Shown here one piece after another: positions 36,345 through 44,986 of a DNA stretch of 64,000 nt. Position numbers and translations under genes: made by a program. Under the pieces are notes generated by a model. The model had not been told where the DNA came from. It made no database searches and was given only the letters and a program-made list of their open reading frames with translations. Numbering within the stretch: the stretch's first letter is position 1; every line of letters starts with the position of its first letter. The DNA is from Deltaproteobacteria bacterium (GTDB lineage Bacteria > Desulfobacterota > Dissulfuribacteria > Dissulfuribacterales > UBA3076), in assembly GCA_018399745.1 (NCBI GenBank), contig JAGYNZ010000001.1, forward strand, positions 37,948 through 101,947, given 5' to 3'.

Positions 36345-36620
36345 CTAAGACTTCTTGCGCCTTCCCTTAGGCTTTGTCTTGGCTGCCTCTTTTGGCTCAA
36401 TCCCTTCTTCTTCCAGAAATTTAAGAATTGGATTGGGCCGACGCACAGTCTTCTTCGGTAAATCTATATGTTTCCTGAGTTCACTGACAATCTTTGACAC
36501 CTGGAACCTACTGATACCAAGCTTGTCGGCTATATCGGAAGCCGTCATTTCAGCATAATGATTATGCACATATCGTACGTCATCTACATTATACGGCCTG
36601 CTTCTCTTTCTTCCAGTCAT
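36345..36620 (-). CDS. Small basic HTH-type protein
   Basis: 91 aa; GAAAGGAG RBS; HTH-like TASDIADKLGISRFQVSKIV; Lys/Arg-rich tail; own terminator. Confidence 0.82.
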   Translation of the reverse strand: MTGRKRSRPYNVDDVRYVHNHYAEMTASDIADKLGISRFQVSKIVSELRKHIDLPKKTVRRPNPILKFLEEEGIEPKEAAKTKPKGRRKKS

Positions 36621-37730: not shown

Positions 37731-37886
37731 TTATTTTGACAGTCCTTTCTCAAAGTTTTTGCCCTTTTCCTTTCTATACCGTGGATCAAGCATACCTGTC
37801 CTGGTTAGGGCATAAGCAATCCATTGTATACAGGCGACCTCTTGATATATCAATCCAGCAATTAGCACTTTCTCTGTTTTCACCAT
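37731..37886 (-). CDS. Possible 51-aa ORF coupled to the nfnB stop
   Basis: ATGGTGA overlap with the nfnB TGA; MVKTEKVLIAGLIYQEVACIQWIAYALTRTGMLDPRYRKEKGKNFEKGLSK; family not recognised. Confidence 0.3.
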   Translation of the reverse strand: MVKTEKVLIAGLIYQEVACIQWIAYALTRTGMLDPRYRKEKGKNFEKGLSK

Positions 37887-39286
37887 CCCCATGTAAGGTA
37901 ATGATGTATTGAATCAGAGGCCTTTCTGCCCGCCCCCATGGCCAAAATGACCGTCGCCTGGCCAGTGACGATATCCCCCCCGGCCCATACGCCTCTCTTC
38001 GTGGTCTTGCCTGTCTGAAGATCTGCCACTATATAACCCCACTTATTGGTTTTCAGATCTTCGGTTGACCCGGGCAAAAGAGGGTTGGCGCCTGCGCCAA
38101 CAGCAATAATCGCCAGGTCGCACTCCATCTTGAACTCGGAGCCTTCTACAGGTAAAGGACGCCGTCGTCCTGATTCGTCGGGTTCACCCAATTTCATTCG
38201 GAGACACTCTATACCTGTCAGACGGGCCTTTTCATCACCCAGGAACCTGGTAGGTGCTGTGAGCAGAAAGAACTCAACACCCTCCTCTTCTGCGTGATGA
38301 GTCTCAGCAAATCGAGCAGGCATTTCATCCCTGGATCTGCGGTAAACGATGCGCACTCTATCAGCACCCAGACGCATGGCAGTACGTGCGGAATCCATTG
38401 CCACATTTCCCGCCCCGAATACAGCCACATTTTTACCTCTGACAATAGGGGTATCGTATTCAGGGAACATGTATGCCTTCATCAGATTGGCCCGGGTCAG
38501 ATACTCGTTTGCTGAATATATACCGGAAAGATTCATACCGGGGACACTTATAAAGGCAGGCAGACCCGCCCCGACTCCTATAAAGACGGCGTCAAACCCA
38601 TCTCTTGTGAGAAGCTCGTTAACTGTACGGATATTCCCAATAACAGAATCGAGCTCTATCTCTACACCCATTCTAAACAGAAAATCGATTTCTGCCTCAA
38701 CTATAGACTTGGGAAGACGAAATTCAGGAATGCCATAAAAGAGGACCCCTCCCGGCTTGTGCAGGGCCTCGAATATGACTACATCATGTCCCAATCTGAC
38801 AAGATCACCTGCCACAGTCAGACCGGAAGGTCCGCTGCCAACCACGGCAACCCTTTTGCCGGTAGACGAGGCCTTTTCTGGCAACTCGATCAGGTTGTTA
38901 TCCCTTTCGTAGTCAGCGCAGAAACGTTCCAGATTGCCGATAGCAACGGGATCACCCTTTTTGCCTAGAATACATCCGGATTCACACTGAATCTCTTGAG
39001 GACATACCCGGCCGGTTACGGCGGGCAGGGCATTTTTCTCCTTGACCGTCCTTGCCGCTGCGGCAAAATCACCCTTTGCTATAAGTGATAAGAATTTCGG
39101 GATGTTTACCTGAACCGGGCAACCACTCATACAACCCGGCTTCTTGCAATTAAGGCAGCGTTTCGCTTCTTTGACAGCCGCTTCAGGGGAATAACCATAC
39201 GGGACCTCTTCGAAATTTCTTACCCTCAACTCAGGTAATTGCTCCGGCATGTGTTGTCGGGAACTCTTTTTGTCCTCGTTTTTCAT
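37880..39286 (-). CDS. nfnB: NfnB/GltD-like NADPH-dependent Fe-S flavoprotein (Nfn large subunit)
   Basis: EAKRCLNC..CMSGCP, GRVCPQE..CE, VGSGPSGL, YGIPEFRLP, FGAGNVAMD and AGGDIVTG motifs; no glutamate synthase large subunit nearby. Confidence 0.85.
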   Translation of the reverse strand: MKNEDKKSSRQHMPEQLPELRVRNFEEVPYGYSPEAAVKEAKRCLNCKKPGCMSGCPVQVNIPKFLSLIAKGDFAAAARTVKEKNALPAVTGRVCPQEIQCESGCILGKKGDPVAIGNLERFCADYERDNNLIELPEKASSTGKRVAVVGSGPSGLTVAGDLVRLGHDVVIFEALHKPGGVLFYGIPEFRLPKSIVEAEIDFLFRMGVEIELDSVIGNIRTVNELLTRDGFDAVFIGVGAGLPAFISVPGMNLSGIYSANEYLTRANLMKAYMFPEYDTPIVRGKNVAVFGAGNVAMDSARTAMRLGADRVRIVYRRSRDEMPARFAETHHAEEEGVEFFLLTAPTRFLGDEKARLTGIECLRMKLGEPDESGRRRPLPVEGSEFKMECDLAIIAVGAGANPLLPGSTEDLKTNKWGYIVADLQTGKTTKRGVWAGGDIVTGQATVILAMGAGRKASDSIHHYLTWGW

Positions 39287-39309
39287 GGAATTCTCTTTCT
39301 GAACATACT

Positions 39310-40128
39310 TTATCTATAGGTTTGATAGGCCATTGCCTCTTCTTTGAGATATAACGATTTTCTTGCGAAGAGCTCTTGCCAGTCAACCTCGTGCCCGTCA
39401 AATTCAGGACCATCTACACATGCGAATTTTGTATTTCCTTTTACTGTCACACGGCAACACCCGCACATGCCTGTACCATCTACCATAATTGGATTAAGGG
39501 CAACGAGTGTCTTGATTTTATGAGACCTGGTTACATTGGAACATTTCATCATCATAAATGTACAGCCAATAAAATAACTCTGATCAATCTTTTCACCAGC
39601 GTCAATCAGTTTGGTAAGGACCTTCTGAACACTGCCCTTCATCCCCTTTGAACCATCGAATGTACTGACAATTAAACGATCAGAGAATTCTTTCAGGGAA
39701 TCCTCCATATACAGGAGATATGCGCTTCGGGCCTCTATGATGGAGATCACTCTGTTCCCTGCCTCTTTCATGGCCCGTGCAATAGGAAAAATGGCCCCGA
39801 TGCCGTAACAGCCTCCTCCAAGAATAACTGTACCCAGCTTATCTATACTTGTCGGTATACCAAGCGGCCCTGCCACACTATACAGCTTACCCCCACTTTG
39901 AATCCTGGCCATCTTGGCTGTTGATATACCCACTTCGAGAAAAAAAATGGAAATCGTCCCCTTTTCCCTGTCCCAGTCCGATATGGTAAAAGGGACCCGT
40001 TCTCCGGTTTCATCCGGCATAATTATCACGAATTGACCCGGTTTTGCCTTATCTGCGACACCAGGCGCCTTTATCACCATAAGGTGGATATTCGGTACAA
40101 TCTCATCTCTCCGGATAACTTCGTACAT
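39310..40128 (-). CDS. nfnA: NfnA/PyrK-like FAD/NAD-binding [2Fe-2S] protein (Nfn small subunit)
   Basis: KPGQFVI, GERVPFTI, GPLG and DGTGMCGCCRV..KFACVDGPEFD motifs; ATG at 40128 follows GGAGG at the end of the upstream gene. Confidence 0.85.
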   Translation of the reverse strand: MYEVIRRDEIVPNIHLMVIKAPGVADKAKPGQFVIIMPDETGERVPFTISDWDREKGTISIFFLEVGISTAKMARIQSGGKLYSVAGPLGIPTSIDKLGTVILGGGCYGIGAIFPIARAMKEAGNRVISIIEARSAYLLYMEDSLKEFSDRLIVSTFDGSKGMKGSVQKVLTKLIDAGEKIDQSYFIGCTFMMMKCSNVTRSHKIKTLVALNPIMVDGTGMCGCCRVTVKGNTKFACVDGPEFDGHEVDWQELFARKSLYLKEEAMAYQTYR

Positions 40129-40129
40129 C

Positions 40130-42505
40130 TTATCCTCCAAGGACTCTTTCATAGAAAAGCTTAAGGTCATGTACCTTTTCAGTTATGTCAATACCTCGAT
40201 AATATAGAGAATATAGAGGCATCTCCTCAGAGACAACATCACTCTTCTTCCACATCAGCTCTTCCACAGGGGTCAGTGCAAACTTCGCCAAAGGTCTTGG
40301 AGACCAGATCCCATGTCCGGAAATGAGGGGATTGACTCTGCAGATTTCATCAAACACCTCCTCAGCACTTGTAAATCCAAAGCCTGCGACCTTCATCTTT
40401 TCGGCTATCAGACATATAATTTTCCAGTCGGGCAAGGCCATACCTACCGGCTTTACCACAGCAGCAAGACGCTGTACCCTTCGCTCCAGAGAAGTAATGG
40501 TCCCATCTTCTTCCGTGAAAGCCACAGACGGAAAAACTACATCGGCTATCTCAAAAAGCGGTGATGGATAAATTCCGTGAAGAACTATAAAATCGACTTG
40601 TGACAGATGGGTCTTGTCAGGTATCGACCCACTGGTTATATAGAGGGCCTTCAGAGCACCTTTGCCGGCTGCCCTGATCATCTCCGAATAGCTGACTCCC
40701 GGCTCTGCAGGTAACTTTGCAGACCACGCCTCTTCTAGTTCTGACACGGCATCTTTGTCAGAGACATCTCGATAGCCAGGCAGGAAATTAGGGAGGGCCC
40801 CCATATCTCCTGCTCCCTGCTCGTTGCCTGCGATTCTCAAAGGTATAAGGCCTAAATGGCTGCCCCTTAAGAGGAGTATATTAAAGAGCAAATAGATGAC
40901 CTGTTGCGGATTACTACTTTCGAGAATCTTTGATCCATAGAGGATGCATCCTCTCTTTGACTTTAGGATCTGGGATGCAAGCTCCATTACTCTATCCACG
41001 GAAAGGCCGCAAGGCGCTATAGTCTCTTCTAAATCCATATCATGGAGAGACCTCTTGAGACTTTCAAACCCATTACATCGACTAGCTACAAAATCCTTGT
41101 CGAAGGCCTCCCTGTCCACAAGTATCTTCAGAATACCGGAAAGAAGAGGCAGATATCCGGATGGTTGAACGGGAACTAAATTGTCGACCATCCTTAAAAT
41201 TATATCATTCTCTGGACCTATCAGACAGACAGTTGCCCCCTGTCTTCTTGCTTTATTGATACTTACTGTGAGGACGGGATGTGAAGTTAGTATATCCGCA
41301 CCTAGTATTATAATCCAATCTGCGCTCTCGATATCTTCAATGGTTCCTGTTCCGGCTCCCACACCTAGGCACCGCACATGTGCATCTATTACTGGGCCTG
41401 AAAAAGCAGAGGCTATATCTATATTGTTCGTGCCCATTCCGACGCGAGCGAATTTTTGCAGCAGATAGGCTGCTTCGTTCGTCAGAAATGGTGAAGCCAC
41501 AAAACCCACTTCCTTTGGAGAATAACGACCTAATCTTTTTGCAACTAGCTCAGCCGCCTCTTCCCAGCCTGCTGGGACCAGTCTCCCTTCCTTTCTGATC
41601 AGTGGATACTTAAGGCGCTCGGCATCGTTGACTAAAGCCGGGATGCAAAAACGCCCTTTCACACAGGCCTGCCCGTGATTGGCCGGACCCTCTTCATCTG
41701 GTCTGGCAGCCATCACCTTCTCCCATTTCGCCTCCAATTTCAGTCTGCATCCAACACTACACAAGGCACAGGTGGTGGTTACCTCTCTTTCCGGAAGACC
41801 ATGCCACTTACTCCCCCTGGCAGACAGAGCACCTGTTGGGCATACGTCTACACAGGCGCCACAGAATCTACATCCCCCATCGAGATAAGATTTGCCAAAG
41901 GCAGTACCTATCTTTGTATCGTGCCCACGCTTTGTAAAAGCAATAGCCCCGATCCCTCTTACCTCCTGGCATACCCGCACACAGCGCCCACATAAAATAC
42001 AGAGGTTATAATCACGATCAAAAAAGGGATCTTCTCTCTCCATCGGAAGACCCTTATATTTAAAAGGTATTCTTATCTCCTTAAGTCCCAGATATTCTGT
42101 TACCTTTCTCAATTCACAGCGATCACGGGCGGGGCAAAAAGTGCAGCCTGTCACCCTCCCGGATTTTGGGGGACATATATAGTATTTTGCGCAGAGTTCT
42201 TTTTGATCACACATGAGACAGGAATTAGGATGCTCCGAGAGGATAAGTTCCAAAACATTTTTTCTCAGATTATGGAGTTCCTTATCCTCTGTGATGACCT
42301 TCATCCCTTCGGCAGCAGGCGTAGTACAGGCAGGGGGAAATCCACGCATATGCTCAATCTTTACCAGACACAACCGGCACGCCCCAAATGGAAAAAGCTC
42401 CTTATGAGCGCAAAGTGAGGGAATATAGATTCCATTATCTCTGGCAACTTCAAGAACAGTTGCCCCTTCTCTGAATTCTACCTCTTTGCCGTTAATAGTC
42501 AGCAT
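40130..42505 (-). CDS. NuoG/FdhF-like Fe-S subunit with a molybdopterin-oxidoreductase fold lacking the catalytic Cys/Sec
   Basis: [2Fe-2S] C..GACRLC..C; HPNSCLMC; 2x[4Fe-4S] CILCGRCVRVC and CRFCGACVDVCP; CALCSVGC..CVKG. NNIDIASAFSG stands where FDH has NNxDxCARxC/UH; no C-terminal molybdopterin-dinucleotide-binding domain. Confidence 0.85.
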   Translation of the reverse strand: MLTINGKEVEFREGATVLEVARDNGIYIPSLCAHKELFPFGACRLCLVKIEHMRGFPPACTTPAAEGMKVITEDKELHNLRKNVLELILSEHPNSCLMCDQKELCAKYYICPPKSGRVTGCTFCPARDRCELRKVTEYLGLKEIRIPFKYKGLPMEREDPFFDRDYNLCILCGRCVRVCQEVRGIGAIAFTKRGHDTKIGTAFGKSYLDGGCRFCGACVDVCPTGALSARGSKWHGLPEREVTTTCALCSVGCRLKLEAKWEKVMAARPDEEGPANHGQACVKGRFCIPALVNDAERLKYPLIRKEGRLVPAGWEEAAELVAKRLGRYSPKEVGFVASPFLTNEAAYLLQKFARVGMGTNNIDIASAFSGPVIDAHVRCLGVGAGTGTIEDIESADWIIILGADILTSHPVLTVSINKARRQGATVCLIGPENDIILRMVDNLVPVQPSGYLPLLSGILKILVDREAFDKDFVASRCNGFESLKRSLHDMDLEETIAPCGLSVDRVMELASQILKSKRGCILYGSKILESSNPQQVIYLLFNILLLRGSHLGLIPLRIAGNEQGAGDMGALPNFLPGYRDVSDKDAVSELEEAWSAKLPAEPGVSYSEMIRAAGKGALKALYITSGSIPDKTHLSQVDFIVLHGIYPSPLFEIADVVFPSVAFTEEDGTITSLERRVQRLAAVVKPVGMALPDWKIICLIAEKMKVAGFGFTSAEEVFDEICRVNPLISGHGIWSPRPLAKFALTPVEELMWKKSDVVSEEMPLYSLYYRGIDITEKVHDLKLFYERVLGG

Positions 42506-44393
42506 TAGTCATTTCCCTTTCTGATTTCCTGAAACCGGTTACCTTCTCCACTGCCCCTATCTTGGGTGGACATACCTGGTAACATGTGCCACACTTTACA
42601 CACAGGGATTGATCTATAACGTGTAATTCTTTCTTTTTGCCGTTAATGGCGCCTACAGGACATTTCTTCTTACATATTCCACAGCCCACGCATTTTTCAG
42701 AAATTACGTATTTGATCAGGTCTTTGCATACCAGAGCCGGACAGCTCTTATCTCTTATATGGGCCTCATATTCATCCCGGAAATAGCGCAAAGTAGTCAA
42801 GACTGGATTAGGGGCCGTCTGGCCCAGTCCACAGAGTGAGGCATTACGAATCGTGACGGCAAGCTCCGCTAAGCGATCAAGATCTTCTTCCTCCCCTTGA
42901 CCCGACTTGATTCTTTCTAATATGTCGAGCATTACCTTTGTCCCGATCCGACAGGGAGAACATTTTCCGCACGATTCTGCCTGGGTGAAAGAAAGAAAAT
43001 AACTGGCAATGTCTACCATACAGGTATCCTCGTCCATGACAATCATTCCACCTGAGCCCATCATTGCACCCATTTCAAGCAGACGGTCAAAATCAACCGG
43101 CGTGTCAATCAATTCACTTGGTAAGCAACCTCCGGCAGGTCCGCCAGTTTGAACCGCCTTAAGGGCCTTGTCGTCTTGAATTCCTCTGCCACACCCATAG
43201 ATGATATCGCGAAAAGTGGTGCCCATCGGAACCTCTACCAATCCGGTATTCTTTACGTTTCCTACAACAGAGAATATCGTGGTTCCTGGACTCTTTTCCG
43301 TGCCAAGGCTGGTAAACCAATCAACGCCGTTCTTAATAATCAATGAGACATTTGCCCAGGTCTTTACGTTATTGATAACGGTCGGTCTTCCCCACACACC
43401 AGAGACCGCAGGAAAAGGCGGCCTGGGTCTGGGCATACCTCTCTTACCCATTATAGATGCCATTAGGGCAGTTTCCTCTCCACAGACGAATGCACCCGCG
43501 CCCATCTTGATCTTTATGTTAAAATCGAAACCACTGCCTAAGATATTCTTACCTAAAAATCCGTATTCTTCAGCCTTTTTGATCGCTATACTGAGATGTT
43601 GAACAGCCAGAGGGTACTCAGCACGCACATAAACATATCCTTCACTGGCACCAATAGCGTAAGCTCCTATAATCATGCCTTCCAGTATGCAATGTGGATC
43701 ACCTTCCATAAGGCTACGATCCATAAATGCTCCAGGGTCACCTTCGTCCCCATTGGCTATAACATACTTGGTGTCAGTCGCTACATTCCGACAAAATTTC
43801 CATTTTGCACCTGTAGGGAAACCGCCACCACCCCTTCCCCTTAATCCTGAGTCAGAAATCATTTCTATGATCTCTTGAGAGGTCATAGAACTTAATGCCT
43901 TGCAAAGAGCTGTGTAACCTCCTTCAACTATATAGTCATCAATGCTCGCTGGATTGATCTTTCCGGTGCGACCGAAAACGTTTCGTACCTGCTTTTTAAA
44001 AAATGGTATATCTGATTCGTATCTAATCTTTTCTTTGGTCTCCGGGTCCTCGTACAACAACCTATCTATAATGATGCCATTGGCAAGGGTCTCAGACACT
44101 ATTTCTGGTATATCCGCAGGCTTTAACTTTTGATAGAAGATATTTTTGGGTCCCACGGCCATCAGCGGACCTTTCTCGCAAAAACCACGACAGCCAACTT
44201 TTTTAATTTCAACTTTATCATCCAATCCCTGTCTGGTTAATTCTTTACCAAGCACGTCAATCACTTGCATCGCTCCACTGGCACGACAGCCAGTAGAAGA
44301 ACATACTCTGACAACTGTTTTTTGGCGGTCTATGGCCTGTATAAGACTATTTCTTAATTCCTCTAAGGCAAAAACAGAATTAATCTTCTTCAT
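42492..44393 (-). CDS. HydB/NuoF-like NADH-binding subunit
   Basis: N-terminal thioredoxin-like Fe-S domain, GLRGRGGGGFP, NGDEGDPGAFMDR, GAGAFVCGEETAL, ESCGKCSPCRIG, H..C....C segment and C-terminal 2x[4Fe-4S]; start ATG 44393. Confidence 0.92.
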   Translation of the reverse strand: MKKINSVFALEELRNSLIQAIDRQKTVVRVCSSTGCRASGAMQVIDVLGKELTRQGLDDKVEIKKVGCRGFCEKGPLMAVGPKNIFYQKLKPADIPEIVSETLANGIIIDRLLYEDPETKEKIRYESDIPFFKKQVRNVFGRTGKINPASIDDYIVEGGYTALCKALSSMTSQEIIEMISDSGLRGRGGGGFPTGAKWKFCRNVATDTKYVIANGDEGDPGAFMDRSLMEGDPHCILEGMIIGAYAIGASEGYVYVRAEYPLAVQHLSIAIKKAEEYGFLGKNILGSGFDFNIKIKMGAGAFVCGEETALMASIMGKRGMPRPRPPFPAVSGVWGRPTVINNVKTWANVSLIIKNGVDWFTSLGTEKSPGTTIFSVVGNVKNTGLVEVPMGTTFRDIIYGCGRGIQDDKALKAVQTGGPAGGCLPSELIDTPVDFDRLLEMGAMMGSGGMIVMDEDTCMVDIASYFLSFTQAESCGKCSPCRIGTKVMLDILERIKSGQGEEEDLDRLAELAVTIRNASLCGLGQTAPNPVLTTLRYFRDEYEAHIRDKSCPALVCKDLIKYVISEKCVGCGICKKKCPVGAINGKKKELHVIDQSLCVKCGTCYQVCPPKIGAVEKVTGFRKSEREMTNADY

Positions 44394-44862
44394 CTTCTGC
44401 TCCTGCTTTTTCTTTAGCATACTTTGATAGAATCTTTTTCAGCTTAATAGGAGAAAAATTGCCATAATATTCATCATCAACTGTGACAAGTGGTGCCAAG
44501 GCACAGGCACCCAGACAATTGACGGTTTCCAGGCCAAACCGATAGTCGAAGGTGATTTCACCTTCATCTATTCCAAGTATTTTTTTTATGTGCATTAAAT
44601 TCAAGGAATTTCCTCTTACATGACAGGCCGTGCCGACGCATACCTTGATTAAATGATCTCCTGGTTTGGTAAATCTGAACTGGGCGTAAAAGGTTGCCAC
44701 TCCATAGATTTCATGTTCTGATATCTTGACGTCTTTGGCGATAGCGGCAACAGCCTCTTCGGAAATATATCCGCATTCTCTCTGCACATCTTGGAGTATT
44801 GGAATCAGACTCCCCTTCTCCCCTTCATGGGATTTAATTATCTTCTCGATTGTCTTCTGCAT
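44380..44862 (-). CDS. HydC/NuoE-like [2Fe-2S] subunit
   Basis: LIPILQDVQ, GVATFYAQF, CVGTACHVRG and CLGACALAP motifs; start ATG 44862 (ORF track 44892). Confidence 0.92.
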   Translation of the reverse strand: MQKTIEKIIKSHEGEKGSLIPILQDVQRECGYISEEAVAAIAKDVKISEHEIYGVATFYAQFRFTKPGDHLIKVCVGTACHVRGNSLNLMHIKKILGIDEGEITFDYRFGLETVNCLGACALAPLVTVDDEYYGNFSPIKLKKILSKYAKEKAGAEDEED

Positions 44863-44986
44863 GATATCAATACCTTTGCTGGCATTCTGCAATAACCCGA
44901 TGTATCCACCTGATCCTTTAGCCGAACAGCCAGACGAATAATATTCTCGAAAGTTCCCCTAAAGATGAAATATTGCATATGGATGG

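Follow-up and report, generated by a model that had tools for sequence, protein, structure and literature searches.

The window analysed here is a stretch of 64,000 nucleotides (nt) from a deltaproteobacterial assembly (GCA_018399745.1, contig JAGYNZ010000001.1), and its minus strand carries a cassette of five genes (bfuC, bfuB, bfuA*, nfnA and nfnB) which probably encode a single soluble iron-sulfur (Fe-S) flavoprotein complex. In this complex a HydBC/Bfu-type core would be joined to NfnAB by way of a FdhA-like scaffold with a dead active site. The observations behind this reading are the domain and ligand content of the subunits, the dead active site and the conserved gene unit, together with the fusion of BfuA* to NfnA in other organisms, the replacement of nfnAB at the same locus and the descent of the cassette from clusters of an active FdhA with NuoEF and NfnAB. 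The physical assembly, the substrates and the electron route are what we infer. The net function would most likely be a reversible exchange of electrons among the reduced nicotinamide adenine dinucleotides NADPH and NADH and ferredoxin (Fd), and the complex probably balances these three carriers in an uncultured anaerobe.

As put forward in the original prediction, the five genes are co-oriented and overlap or abut one another, which is borne out by the positions of their open reading frames (ORFs). bfuC (44380-44862, minus, as are the other four) encodes a NuoE/HydC-like [2Fe-2S] subunit of 160 amino acids (aa) when read from the ATG at 44862 (PF01257, 2Fe-2S_thioredx, E=1e-47); this start agrees with the N-termini of homologues ('MQKTIEKI' onward), and the reading frame is open from a TTG at 44892. 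bfuB (42492-44420, 642 aa) overlaps bfuC by 41 nt and encodes a NuoF/HydB-like subunit for flavin mononucleotide (FMN) and NAD(H), of predicted bifurcating type. bfuA* (40130-42505, 791 aa), which overlaps bfuB by 14 nt, encodes the FdhA/NuoG-like Fe-S scaffold, cap-less and catalytically dead. It is followed by nfnA (39310-40170, 286 aa; NF004862/DHODB_Fe-S_bind) for an NfnS-like subunit with flavin adenine dinucleotide (FAD) and [2Fe-2S], from the FdhA-linked variant lineage. The overlap at this junction is at most 41 nt and becomes a 1-nt gap if nfnA begins at Met15. A gap of 23 nt separates nfnA from nfnB (37880-39286, 468 aa), whose product is an NfnL-like NADP(H)/FAD/2x[4Fe-4S] subunit (Fer4_20 + Pyr_redox_2; TIGR01316, 583 bits). 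The domains that had been named for all five subunits were each recovered by Pfam and NCBIfam. The overlaps and the conserved gene order point to co-transcription of the five genes; promoter and terminator scans of the cluster region gave signal at background level, and an Rfam scan of positions 30000-52000 gave no matches.

The five genes were found to form a conserved unit. A protein search recovered a cap-less family of 745-817 aa, with identities to BfuA* of 61-96% in Desulfobacterales and of 44-49% in Thermoplasmatota and Undinarchaeales. A check on the conservation of the cluster had been proposed at the outset, and the same order (NuoE - NuoF - cap-less FdhA-like protein - NfnA - NfnB) was indeed seen in both bacteria and archaea, on three long contigs from Desulfobacteraceae Eth-SRB1, Thermoplasmatales and Undinarchaeales. 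In addition, 80 metagenome loci were picked solely by their similarity to BfuA* and their ORFs were classed by BLASTP. The cap-less loci that bear the C-terminal tail described below have NuoF upstream in 16 of 16 instances and, where the contig reaches, NfnA downstream in 14 of 14 and NfnB in 12 of 12. All 21 dead-site loci (21/21) contain NuoEF together with a variant NfnA, and none of the seven NuoG/FdsA-like relatives with a non-Bfu NuoF (0/7) has NfnAB neighbours.

Furthermore, BfuA- and NfnA-like proteins were observed to be fused in other organisms. One capped FdhA::NfnA fusion was found (P0088, 1229 aa), and when its NfnA part was used as the query more than 100 clusters of BfuA::NfnA fusions of about 826-855 aa were recovered from Dehalococcoidia, Planctomycetota, Hydrogenedentota and other groups. 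These are made up of BfuA-type Fe-S domains, a MopB part that is greatly reduced and an NfnA domain, and in the two genomic contexts examined the order is NuoE - BfuB-type NuoF - fusion - NfnB. The C-terminal tail of BfuA* carries the motif 'LYYRGIDITEKVHDLK' (40160-40207, minus; residues 767-782) in place of cap domain IV, and Y769, R770, G771, V778 and D780 of this motif are near-invariant in the cap-less family. It aligns with 'TYFRGHRIDEKVPGLR' of the fusions, which is located 25-35 residues ahead of the NfnA domain, and the overlapping bfuA* and nfnA frames therefore correspond to a split form of the fusion protein. An AlphaFold2 (AF2) model of one fusion, made with 100 homologues, reached a predicted template modelling score (pTM) of 0.86 and a predicted local distance difference test score (pLDDT) of 87.8, with low values only in the linker, the extra-Cys loop and the C-terminus. 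In a Foldseek comparison of this model the C-terminal half resembled NfnS of Pyrococcus furiosus (Pfu; template modelling score, TM, 0.92) and the N-terminal half resembled NuoG/FdsA/BfuA; no entry in the PDB was found to span both the NfnS and the NuoG/BfuA halves. Pairwise distances, which were not corrected for phylogeny, gave Spearman coefficients of 0.75 for BfuA* with NfnA, 0.48 for NfnA with NfnB and 0.11-0.31 for BfuBC with NfnAB.

Several other gene arrangements were noticed. At loci L081, L093, L094, L100, L101, L103, L104, L107 and L077/78/84 an active Cys-His FdhA is directly followed by a variant NfnA, with NfnB divergent upstream and without NuoEF. These may represent a formate dehydrogenase coupled directly to NfnSL, with formate, for example, replacing ferredoxin; no description of an FdhA-NfnSL arrangement without NuoEF was found in the literature. 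A protein of about 730 aa with Fer2_4/Fer4 and GltD-like parts lies between FdhA and NfnA at L028, L060, L068, L069, L072 and L086, and NuoF::GltD-like fusions of 1025-1046 aa occur at L030, L042, L053, L063 and L070. Because of these extra GltD-like fusion proteins, some active-FdhA clusters contain two or three NfnB/GltD-type modules. In the archaeal loci L025 and L026/L027 the five-gene cluster adjoins genes for glutamate dehydrogenase (ELFV_dehydrog), glutamine synthetase and PPDK-like proteins, which hints at a supply of NADPH for nitrogen assimilation.

The core subunits have the make-up of the Bfu family, in which BfuB carries extra N-terminal [2Fe-2S] and C-terminal 2x[4Fe-4S] clusters that are missing from non-bifurcating NuoF/FdsB (Schut et al. 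2022). Enzymes of this family use a third substrate to reduce NAD+ and ferredoxin in tight coupling. In Pfam, BfuB was found to contain Complex1_51K and NADH_4Fe-4S domains, an N-terminal 2Fe-2S_thioredx domain (residues 31-110) with the [2Fe-2S] ligands Cys40, 45, 77 and 81, and two C-terminal Fer4 domains (571-620). It thus has the B1 [4Fe-4S] cluster together with the extra clusters at both ends, and BfuC has one [2Fe-2S]. BfuB aligns over its full length with BfuB of the Acetomicrobium mobile NiFe-Bfu (7t2r_B, 1.3e-245) and with HydB, NfnABC NfnB and StnB (7q4v_B, 8a6t_B, 9bov_B, 9n5u_B and 8oh5_B), whereas the non-bifurcating Nqo1/FdsB align to residues 146-559 only. The N-terminal Fe-S domain and C-terminal 2x[4Fe-4S] extension that had been noted in the NuoF-like subunit are therefore confirmed by domains, Cys motifs and full-length alignments alike, and BfuB is predicted to be a bifurcating-type subunit. 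A recombination patch of about 1.6 kb was also detected in this region (43028-44625, minus), covering the 3' half of bfuC (residues 81-160) and the first ~465 codons of bfuB. When compared with the orthologue in the congeneric genome G009, the cassette of which is 94% identical, the patch shows 38-70% nucleotide identity and its flanks 98-100%. Residues 466-642 of BfuB are 100% identical to those of G009, and residues 1-465 are closest to another cap-less cluster (L035, 80%). The FMN/NADH domain and the adjoining 2Fe-2S parts (the 'flavobicluster' region) have been exchanged en bloc.

A second Bfu-type cluster was found in the same genome (C45:26664-31318), with a NuoE (48%), a BfuB-type NuoF (57%) and an FdhA with selenocysteine (Sec, read from TGA; 36%). 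This cluster is presumably a genuine bifurcating formate dehydrogenase (Sec-type Fdh-Bfu).

The third subunit, BfuA*, had been predicted to be non-catalytic and this was upheld by comparison with known and related enzymes. Its domains in Pfam and NCBIfam are Fer2_4, NADH-G_4Fe-4S_3, Fer4_Nqo3, Molybdop_Fe4S4 and Molybdopterin (PF00384), with PF01568 (cap domain IV) undetected. The former ligand site for molybdenum or tungsten (Mo/W) lies at 41390-41416 (minus; residues 364-372, 'IASAFSGPV'), which pairs with 'ARVCHSPTG' of Rhodobacter capsulatus FdsA (6tg9_A) and with 'HCARL[C/U]H' of active relatives. The Cys/Sec of the metal-ligand pair is replaced by Phe and the His by Ser, and the same was observed across the cap-less family. 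The alignment with FdsA stops at residue 762 of 958 and therefore the cap domain is missing, so that BfuA* lacks both features of a Mo/W formate dehydrogenase, the Cys/Sec + His ligand and cap domain IV. The MopB-like part that is left (240-750) was modelled by AF2 with a pLDDT of about 90. None of the Fe-S ligand sets has been lost, and across 32 family members they do not vary (C32/43/46/60; H92/C96/99/105; C121/124/130; C169/172/175/179; C212/215/218/222; C246/249/253/281). The cluster sites comprise a [2Fe-2S], a His-ligated [4Fe-4S], two ferredoxin-type [4Fe-4S], a MopB-type [4Fe-4S] and an extra CxxCx5C.

A tree was made of 89 FdhA-like proteins. The dead forms, from 21 loci, group there as one clade, with a support of 99 in the Shimodaira-Hasegawa-like approximate likelihood ratio test (SH-aLRT), and the active enzymes of the Sec-His and Cys-His types are sister to this clade. 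As the dead forms are a single clade that occurs in both bacteria and archaea, the loss of the active site is old and has been retained under selection. The closest capped relatives are active FdhA proteins from Nitrospirota and Dehalococcoidia which are also found in NuoE-NuoF-FdhA-NfnA-NfnB clusters, and therefore the cassette in the window is a derived form of a formate-dehydrogenase/Bfu/Nfn assembly. That BfuA* is still catalytic on formate or another MopB substrate by means of an unusual ligand, with NfnAB and BfuBC as its redox partners, is hardly credible to us. PF00384 does match over its full length (E=5e-47), and the closest capped relatives just mentioned are Cys-His or Sec-His formate dehydrogenases with the same gene order. 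However, BfuA* has lost the Cys/Sec ligand together with the neighbouring His, as well as the cap domain, most of the MopB fold has also been deleted in the sister fusions, and the genome has its separate Sec-type Fdh-Bfu on another contig.

BfuA* also contains an extra Cys motif behind the His-ligated cluster motif (42113-42181, minus; residues 109-131, with C111, C121, C124 and C130). The motif has the form C-x9-11-CxxCx5C[E/D], where the CxxCx5C spacing is the same as in the preceding HxxxCxxCx5C, and a further Fe-S cluster is probably bound here, in a part that AF2 models with low confidence (pLDDT 34-63). It is widespread in the FdhA clade to which BfuA* belongs, also without NfnAB, and is missing from R. 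capsulatus FdsA. We considered the motif as an NfnAB-specific docking site and rejected this, since it occurs in FdhA proteins without NfnAB and is missing from some that are linked to NfnAB. Where the first Cys has been lost, the partner was seen to be almost always a variant NfnA. Proteins with three and with four of the Cys residues numbered 19 and 21 among split variant loci, 79 and 0 among fusions, 0 and 8 beside canonical NfnA, and 1 and 14 where NfnA is absent. This pattern is suggestive and would fit an Fe-S site where BfuA* and NfnA meet, although it is confounded by ancestry and the protein in the window itself has four Cys.

NfnA was found to belong to a specialised lineage. It matches Pfu NfnS (5jca_S, 1.9e-82) and keeps the FAD strand ERxPxT (ERVPFT, 57-62), the [2Fe-2S] motif DGTGMCGxCRx10CV (DGTGMCGCCR...FACV, 231-252, that is, DGTGMCGCCRx10CV) and the equivalent of Asn218. 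When it was compared with NfnA of Thermotoga maritima (Tma) and Pfu and with the stand-alone NfnA of congeners, the motifs of the NAD(H) domain were observed to be altered jointly: GGGVGVA has become GGGC121YGIG, LGAR(T/N) has become IIE146ARS and (V/I)GP..MM has become IGC203TFMM. An additional change is that of ADVD to SDW66D. The new Cys121, Cys203 and Glu146 are invariant in 100 fusions, and so are the ligands of the FAD and the [2Fe-2S]. Of the full NfnA+NfnB pair in the original prediction, NfnB has thus proved canonical, whereas NfnA has not, owing to its altered NAD(H)-site motifs. In the NfnA tree all the NfnA proteins linked to FdhA or BfuA form one clade (SH-aLRT 97), apart from those of Pfu, Tma and the congeners and from NfnA-NfnB fusions. 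Within this clade the neighbours of Sec-FdhA, which have canonical motifs, branch first, and the variant clade consists of the group of the window as sister to the fusions. This variant lineage was found solely adjoining, or fused to, FdhA/BfuA-like proteins. An inactivation like that of P. furiosus NfnII was considered for NfnA and rejected, as the NfnII blocking loop, Arg66 and His220 are all missing here.

NfnB matches T. maritima NfnB (4ylf_B, 8.5e-170, 57% identity). Cluster motifs, Arg201, Arg333 and a long N-terminus set NfnB apart from its non-bifurcating Fnor relatives in the literature, and all of these were found: RCx2Cx4Cx3CPV and GRVCPQExQCx3C (residues 43-58 and 92-105), Arg190 (Pfu Arg201), Arg325 (Pfu Arg333) and the extended N-terminus (residue 8 of the query aligns to residue 3 of 4ylf_B), with nfnA lying directly upstream of nfnB. 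In the NfnB tree the stand-alone NfnB of congeners is nested within the cassette clade, and the idea of a specialised NfnB lineage was therefore ruled out.

The comparison of 17 genomes of the same genus places the cassette at the site of a plain nfnAB locus. The cassette is common only to the window genome, G009 and G012, and 13 other congeners have a single NfnB with 74-76% identity. Without the cassette, the gene order is histidine kinase (HK) - ParA - enolase-like - nfnA - nfnB - gatB - mtnA-like - GAF - mreB, and with it the order is enolase-like - bfuC - bfuB - bfuA* - nfnA - nfnB - gatB. In none of these genomes do the two forms occur together: three carry just the cassette and 13 just a stand-alone nfnAB. 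In addition, the metagenome-assembled genome of 2.65 Mb to which the window belongs has no second full NfnB homologue. The cassette therefore takes the place of NfnAB. The flanking proteins are 74-89% identical to those of the congeners, NfnA is only 50% identical to theirs, and the window NfnA shares 73% identity with the cassette NfnA of Eth-SRB1. A sample of 401 genomes of the phylum yielded only a single clear orthologue (66%), along with two that are distant, and this patchy distribution suggests horizontal transfer; a single-protein scan of genome contigs gave close relatives only.

Several points weigh against a single complex, and an alternative is that of two independent enzymes in one operon, in which a normal NfnAB would stand next to a BfuCBA* module that serves some other, unlinked partner or is a relic. 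NfnB is canonical and nested among stand-alone forms, and NfnAB of the sister species works alone at the same locus; since NfnB keeps all the features of a self-sufficient NfnL and is not separated phylogenetically, NfnAB could in principle function alone here as well. BfuBC has been swapped by recombination separately from the rest, and its co-variation with NfnAB is weak (0.11-0.31). The distance and Cys-state correlations are uncorrected for shared ancestry. Where active FdhA-Bfu genes cluster with NfnAB, the reason could be a metabolic link via free NADH and ferredoxin instead of contact. Glu146, at the end of strand beta-2, could favour NAD, and the sequencing runs matching the stretch are DNA metagenomes only, with no RNA run among them. 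Nevertheless, we regard two independent enzymes as improbable. If its A subunit is dead, a BfuABC is left without a third substrate unless NfnAB supplies one, none of the dead-class loci lacks NfnA (0/21), BfuA::NfnA fusions are abundant, and the NfnA in question is only half identical to that of the congeners and confined to FdhA/BfuA-like neighbourhoods. A relic would not remain intact with all its Fe-S ligands invariant across bacteria and archaea. The premise common to both alternatives of the original prediction, that NfnAB works with a HydBC/Bfu-type module through a non-catalytic NuoG/FdhA-like subunit, is thus strongly supported by the conserved order, the fusions, the NfnA lineage and the replacement at the same site.

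In the favoured single complex, BfuB and BfuC would form the HydBC/Bfu-type core with FMN, the NAD(H) site and the ferredoxin-facing clusters, and BfuA* would serve as an Fe-S wire and scaffold only. The specialised NfnA would dock at the C-terminal side of BfuA*, at the position of the lost cap domain, and would hold the canonical NfnB. NfnB would provide the NADP(H) site, with NADP(H) as the third substrate, and the net job would be that of stand-alone NfnAB in the sister species and of Stn/NfnABC elsewhere. The electrons would preferably pass from NfnA ([2Fe-2S]/a-FAD) to the BfuA* chain. This is the weakest step of the scheme, and it is favoured because NfnA is fused to BfuA, has diverged and co-varies most with BfuA*.

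Variants of this route differ in what NfnB does. In a variant that resembles Stn, NfnB would only inject electrons from NADPH through Fe-S clusters into BfuA* without bifurcating them, bifurcation would take place at BfuBC alone with a 2:1:1 stoichiometry, and NfnA would be an adaptor or a dead-end branch. We regard this as a tentative possibility. A GltD/NfnL-type module is known to serve a Bfu core in Stn/NfnABC, and StnC too has an inactive FdhF-like domain; the altered NAD(H)-site motifs of NfnA and the example of P. furiosus NfnII, where an altered S subunit can turn bifurcation off, point in the same direction. However, Stn is without NfnA, whereas here the FAD and [2Fe-2S] ligands of NfnA have been kept, also in the 100 fusions. 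Moreover, NfnB has Arg325, which is missing in the non-bifurcating Fnor relatives, and NfnA has the Asn and not the His of NfnII.

In the other variants one complex would contain two active bifurcation centres in series, the b-FAD of NfnB and the BfuBC flavobicluster, with a non-canonical stoichiometry. If the high-potential branch (b-FAD to NfnA [2Fe-2S] to a-FAD) were wired into BfuA*, the ratio would be 4:1:3 (4 NADPH + NAD+ + 3 Fd-ox = 4 NADP+ + NADH + 3 Fd-red), and if the low-potential branch were wired into it the ratio would be 4:3:1 (4 NADPH + 3 NAD+ + Fd-ox = 4 NADP+ + 3 NADH + Fd-red). These ratios are the outcome of a calculation that used the potentials given by Schut et al. 2022. 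Hallmarks of bifurcation persist in both modules: in NfnB, Arg190, Arg325 and the Glu-type cluster motif; in NfnA, the Asn that in NfnI keeps the potentials of the S-subunit FAD uncrossed; and in BfuB, the N- and C-terminal clusters. A precedent is found in Bam-Bfu, for which two bifurcating modules in series have been proposed. We nevertheless consider two active centres rather unlikely. The 4:3:1 form is far from equilibrium at physiological potentials of -280 mV for NADH, -380 mV for NADPH and -500 mV for ferredoxin, the potentials being those of the same source. The homologous FAD of Stn, furthermore, has lost bifurcation despite a similar-looking pocket, and therefore sequence hallmarks do not amount to proof of bifurcation. 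The boldest version, which we think unlikely, is that the two unlike centres (in NfnB the crossed-potential FAD, in BfuBC the FMN/Fe-S flavobicluster) are hard-wired through NfnA, the old NAD(H) pocket of which, with Cys121 and Cys203, would face or help to ligate the extra Fe-S site of three to four Cys in BfuA*. If this were true, the 'gear ratio' of the transhydrogenase would be 4:3:1 or 4:1:3 and not 2:1:1, and NADPH could be made with less ferredoxin or ferredoxin could be driven to a much lower potential.

The possibility that the cluster matches an already characterised complex, which would have counted against the original prediction, was looked at, and no such complex was found: the Stn/NfnABC enzymes have no NfnA and no PDB entry contains both modules. 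These enzymes (Sporomusa ovata StnABC, 8oh5; Caldicellulosiruptor saccharolyticus NfnABC, 9bov; Thermococcus sibiricus NfnABC, 9n5u), classed as Nfn-Bfu, Type 1 Bfu, share with the cassette a NuoE-like subunit and a bifurcating-type NuoF-like core, a NuoG-like Fe-S subunit with an inactive FdhF-like domain, an NfnL/GltD-type FAD/2x[4Fe-4S] module for NADP(H) and the same expected substrates. They differ in being built of three subunits, with the GltD-like module inside BfuA. BfuA* is without Fer4_20 or Pyr_redox_2, and the NfnB of the cassette is separate and fully NfnL-like, keeps Arg333 and is joined via an NfnS-type FAD/[2Fe-2S] subunit. With NfnAB/NfnSL (T. maritima, 4ylf; P. furiosus NfnI, 5jca) the cassette has in common the cluster, FAD and Arg motifs of NfnB, the ERxPxT, Asp/3Cys and NfnI Asn of NfnA, and nfnA upstream of nfnB. 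Unlike those stand-alone heterodimers, the pair described here always lies behind BfuCBA*/FdhA or is fused, and the glycine-rich, GAR and GP motifs of its NfnA are altered, with two new Cys. P. furiosus NfnII (5vj7) is likewise an NfnSL with an altered NAD site in the S subunit and a changed function, but its blocking loop, Arg66 and His220 have no counterpart in the cassette.

Among formate dehydrogenases, the Type 1 bifurcating Fdh-Bfu (Schut et al. 2022) has the same BfuC-BfuB-FdhA order and Fe-S domain set and is of common ancestry; unlike it, the cassette has lost the pterin ligand and the cap and has added NfnAB as the sole possible module for a third substrate. Bam-Bfu (benzoyl-CoA reductase class II; a proposal of Schut et al. 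2022) is similar in that it would combine a Bfu module, in series, with a bifurcating flavin module unrelated to it. That second module is, however, of the HdrA type and serves a tungsten benzoyl-CoA reductase, whereas here it is of the NfnSL type and serves NADP(H). By description only, SfrAB of Geobacter sulfurreducens also has a NuoG/FdhA-like subunit alongside a GltD-like one for NADPH, although without a NuoEF core and without NfnA. The sole form of Nfn-Bfu listed by Schut et al. 2022 is the fused Type 1, and recent structural papers treat NfnSL and NfnABC as unrelated alternatives. No description of BfuBC with an FdhA-like subunit and NfnSL was found in full-text searches of the literature or in Schut et al. 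2022, the cryo-electron microscopy (cryo-EM) papers on NfnABC, the papers on Stn, reviews on Nfn and a paper on Hydrogenedentota, and the five-gene enzyme is most likely undescribed so far.

In the view of the field NfnSL and NfnABC/Stn are two unrelated solutions and an organism has one or the other, whereas the family of the cassette would unite both in one predicted particle. Split members of the family come from Desulfobacterota, Thermoplasmatota and Undinarchaeota; fused members come from Planctomycetota, Chloroflexota and Hydrogenedentota. The family would offer a natural test case for the coupling of two bifurcating centres and displays modular enzyme evolution clearly, from a formate dehydrogenase to a dead scaffold to a fusion. 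It would also allow a better reading of the NADPH/ferredoxin balance in many uncultured anaerobes, in which these genes are now annotated as 'formate dehydrogenase' and 'glutamate synthase/sulfide dehydrogenase'. Within the genus, species with plain nfnAB and species with the cassette can be compared at one locus.

The genes that flank the cassette are unrelated to it, with an enolase-superfamily gene upstream and gatB downstream beyond a gap of 1.9 kb. This nfnB-gatB gap is AT-rich and contains an ORF of 91 aa (36345-36620, minus) with a helix-turn-helix (HTH)-like stretch, 'MTASDIADKLGISRFQVSKIVSELRK'. A terminator-like hairpin follows this ORF at 36314-36287, and with its 12-bp stem and T run it was the strongest of the region.

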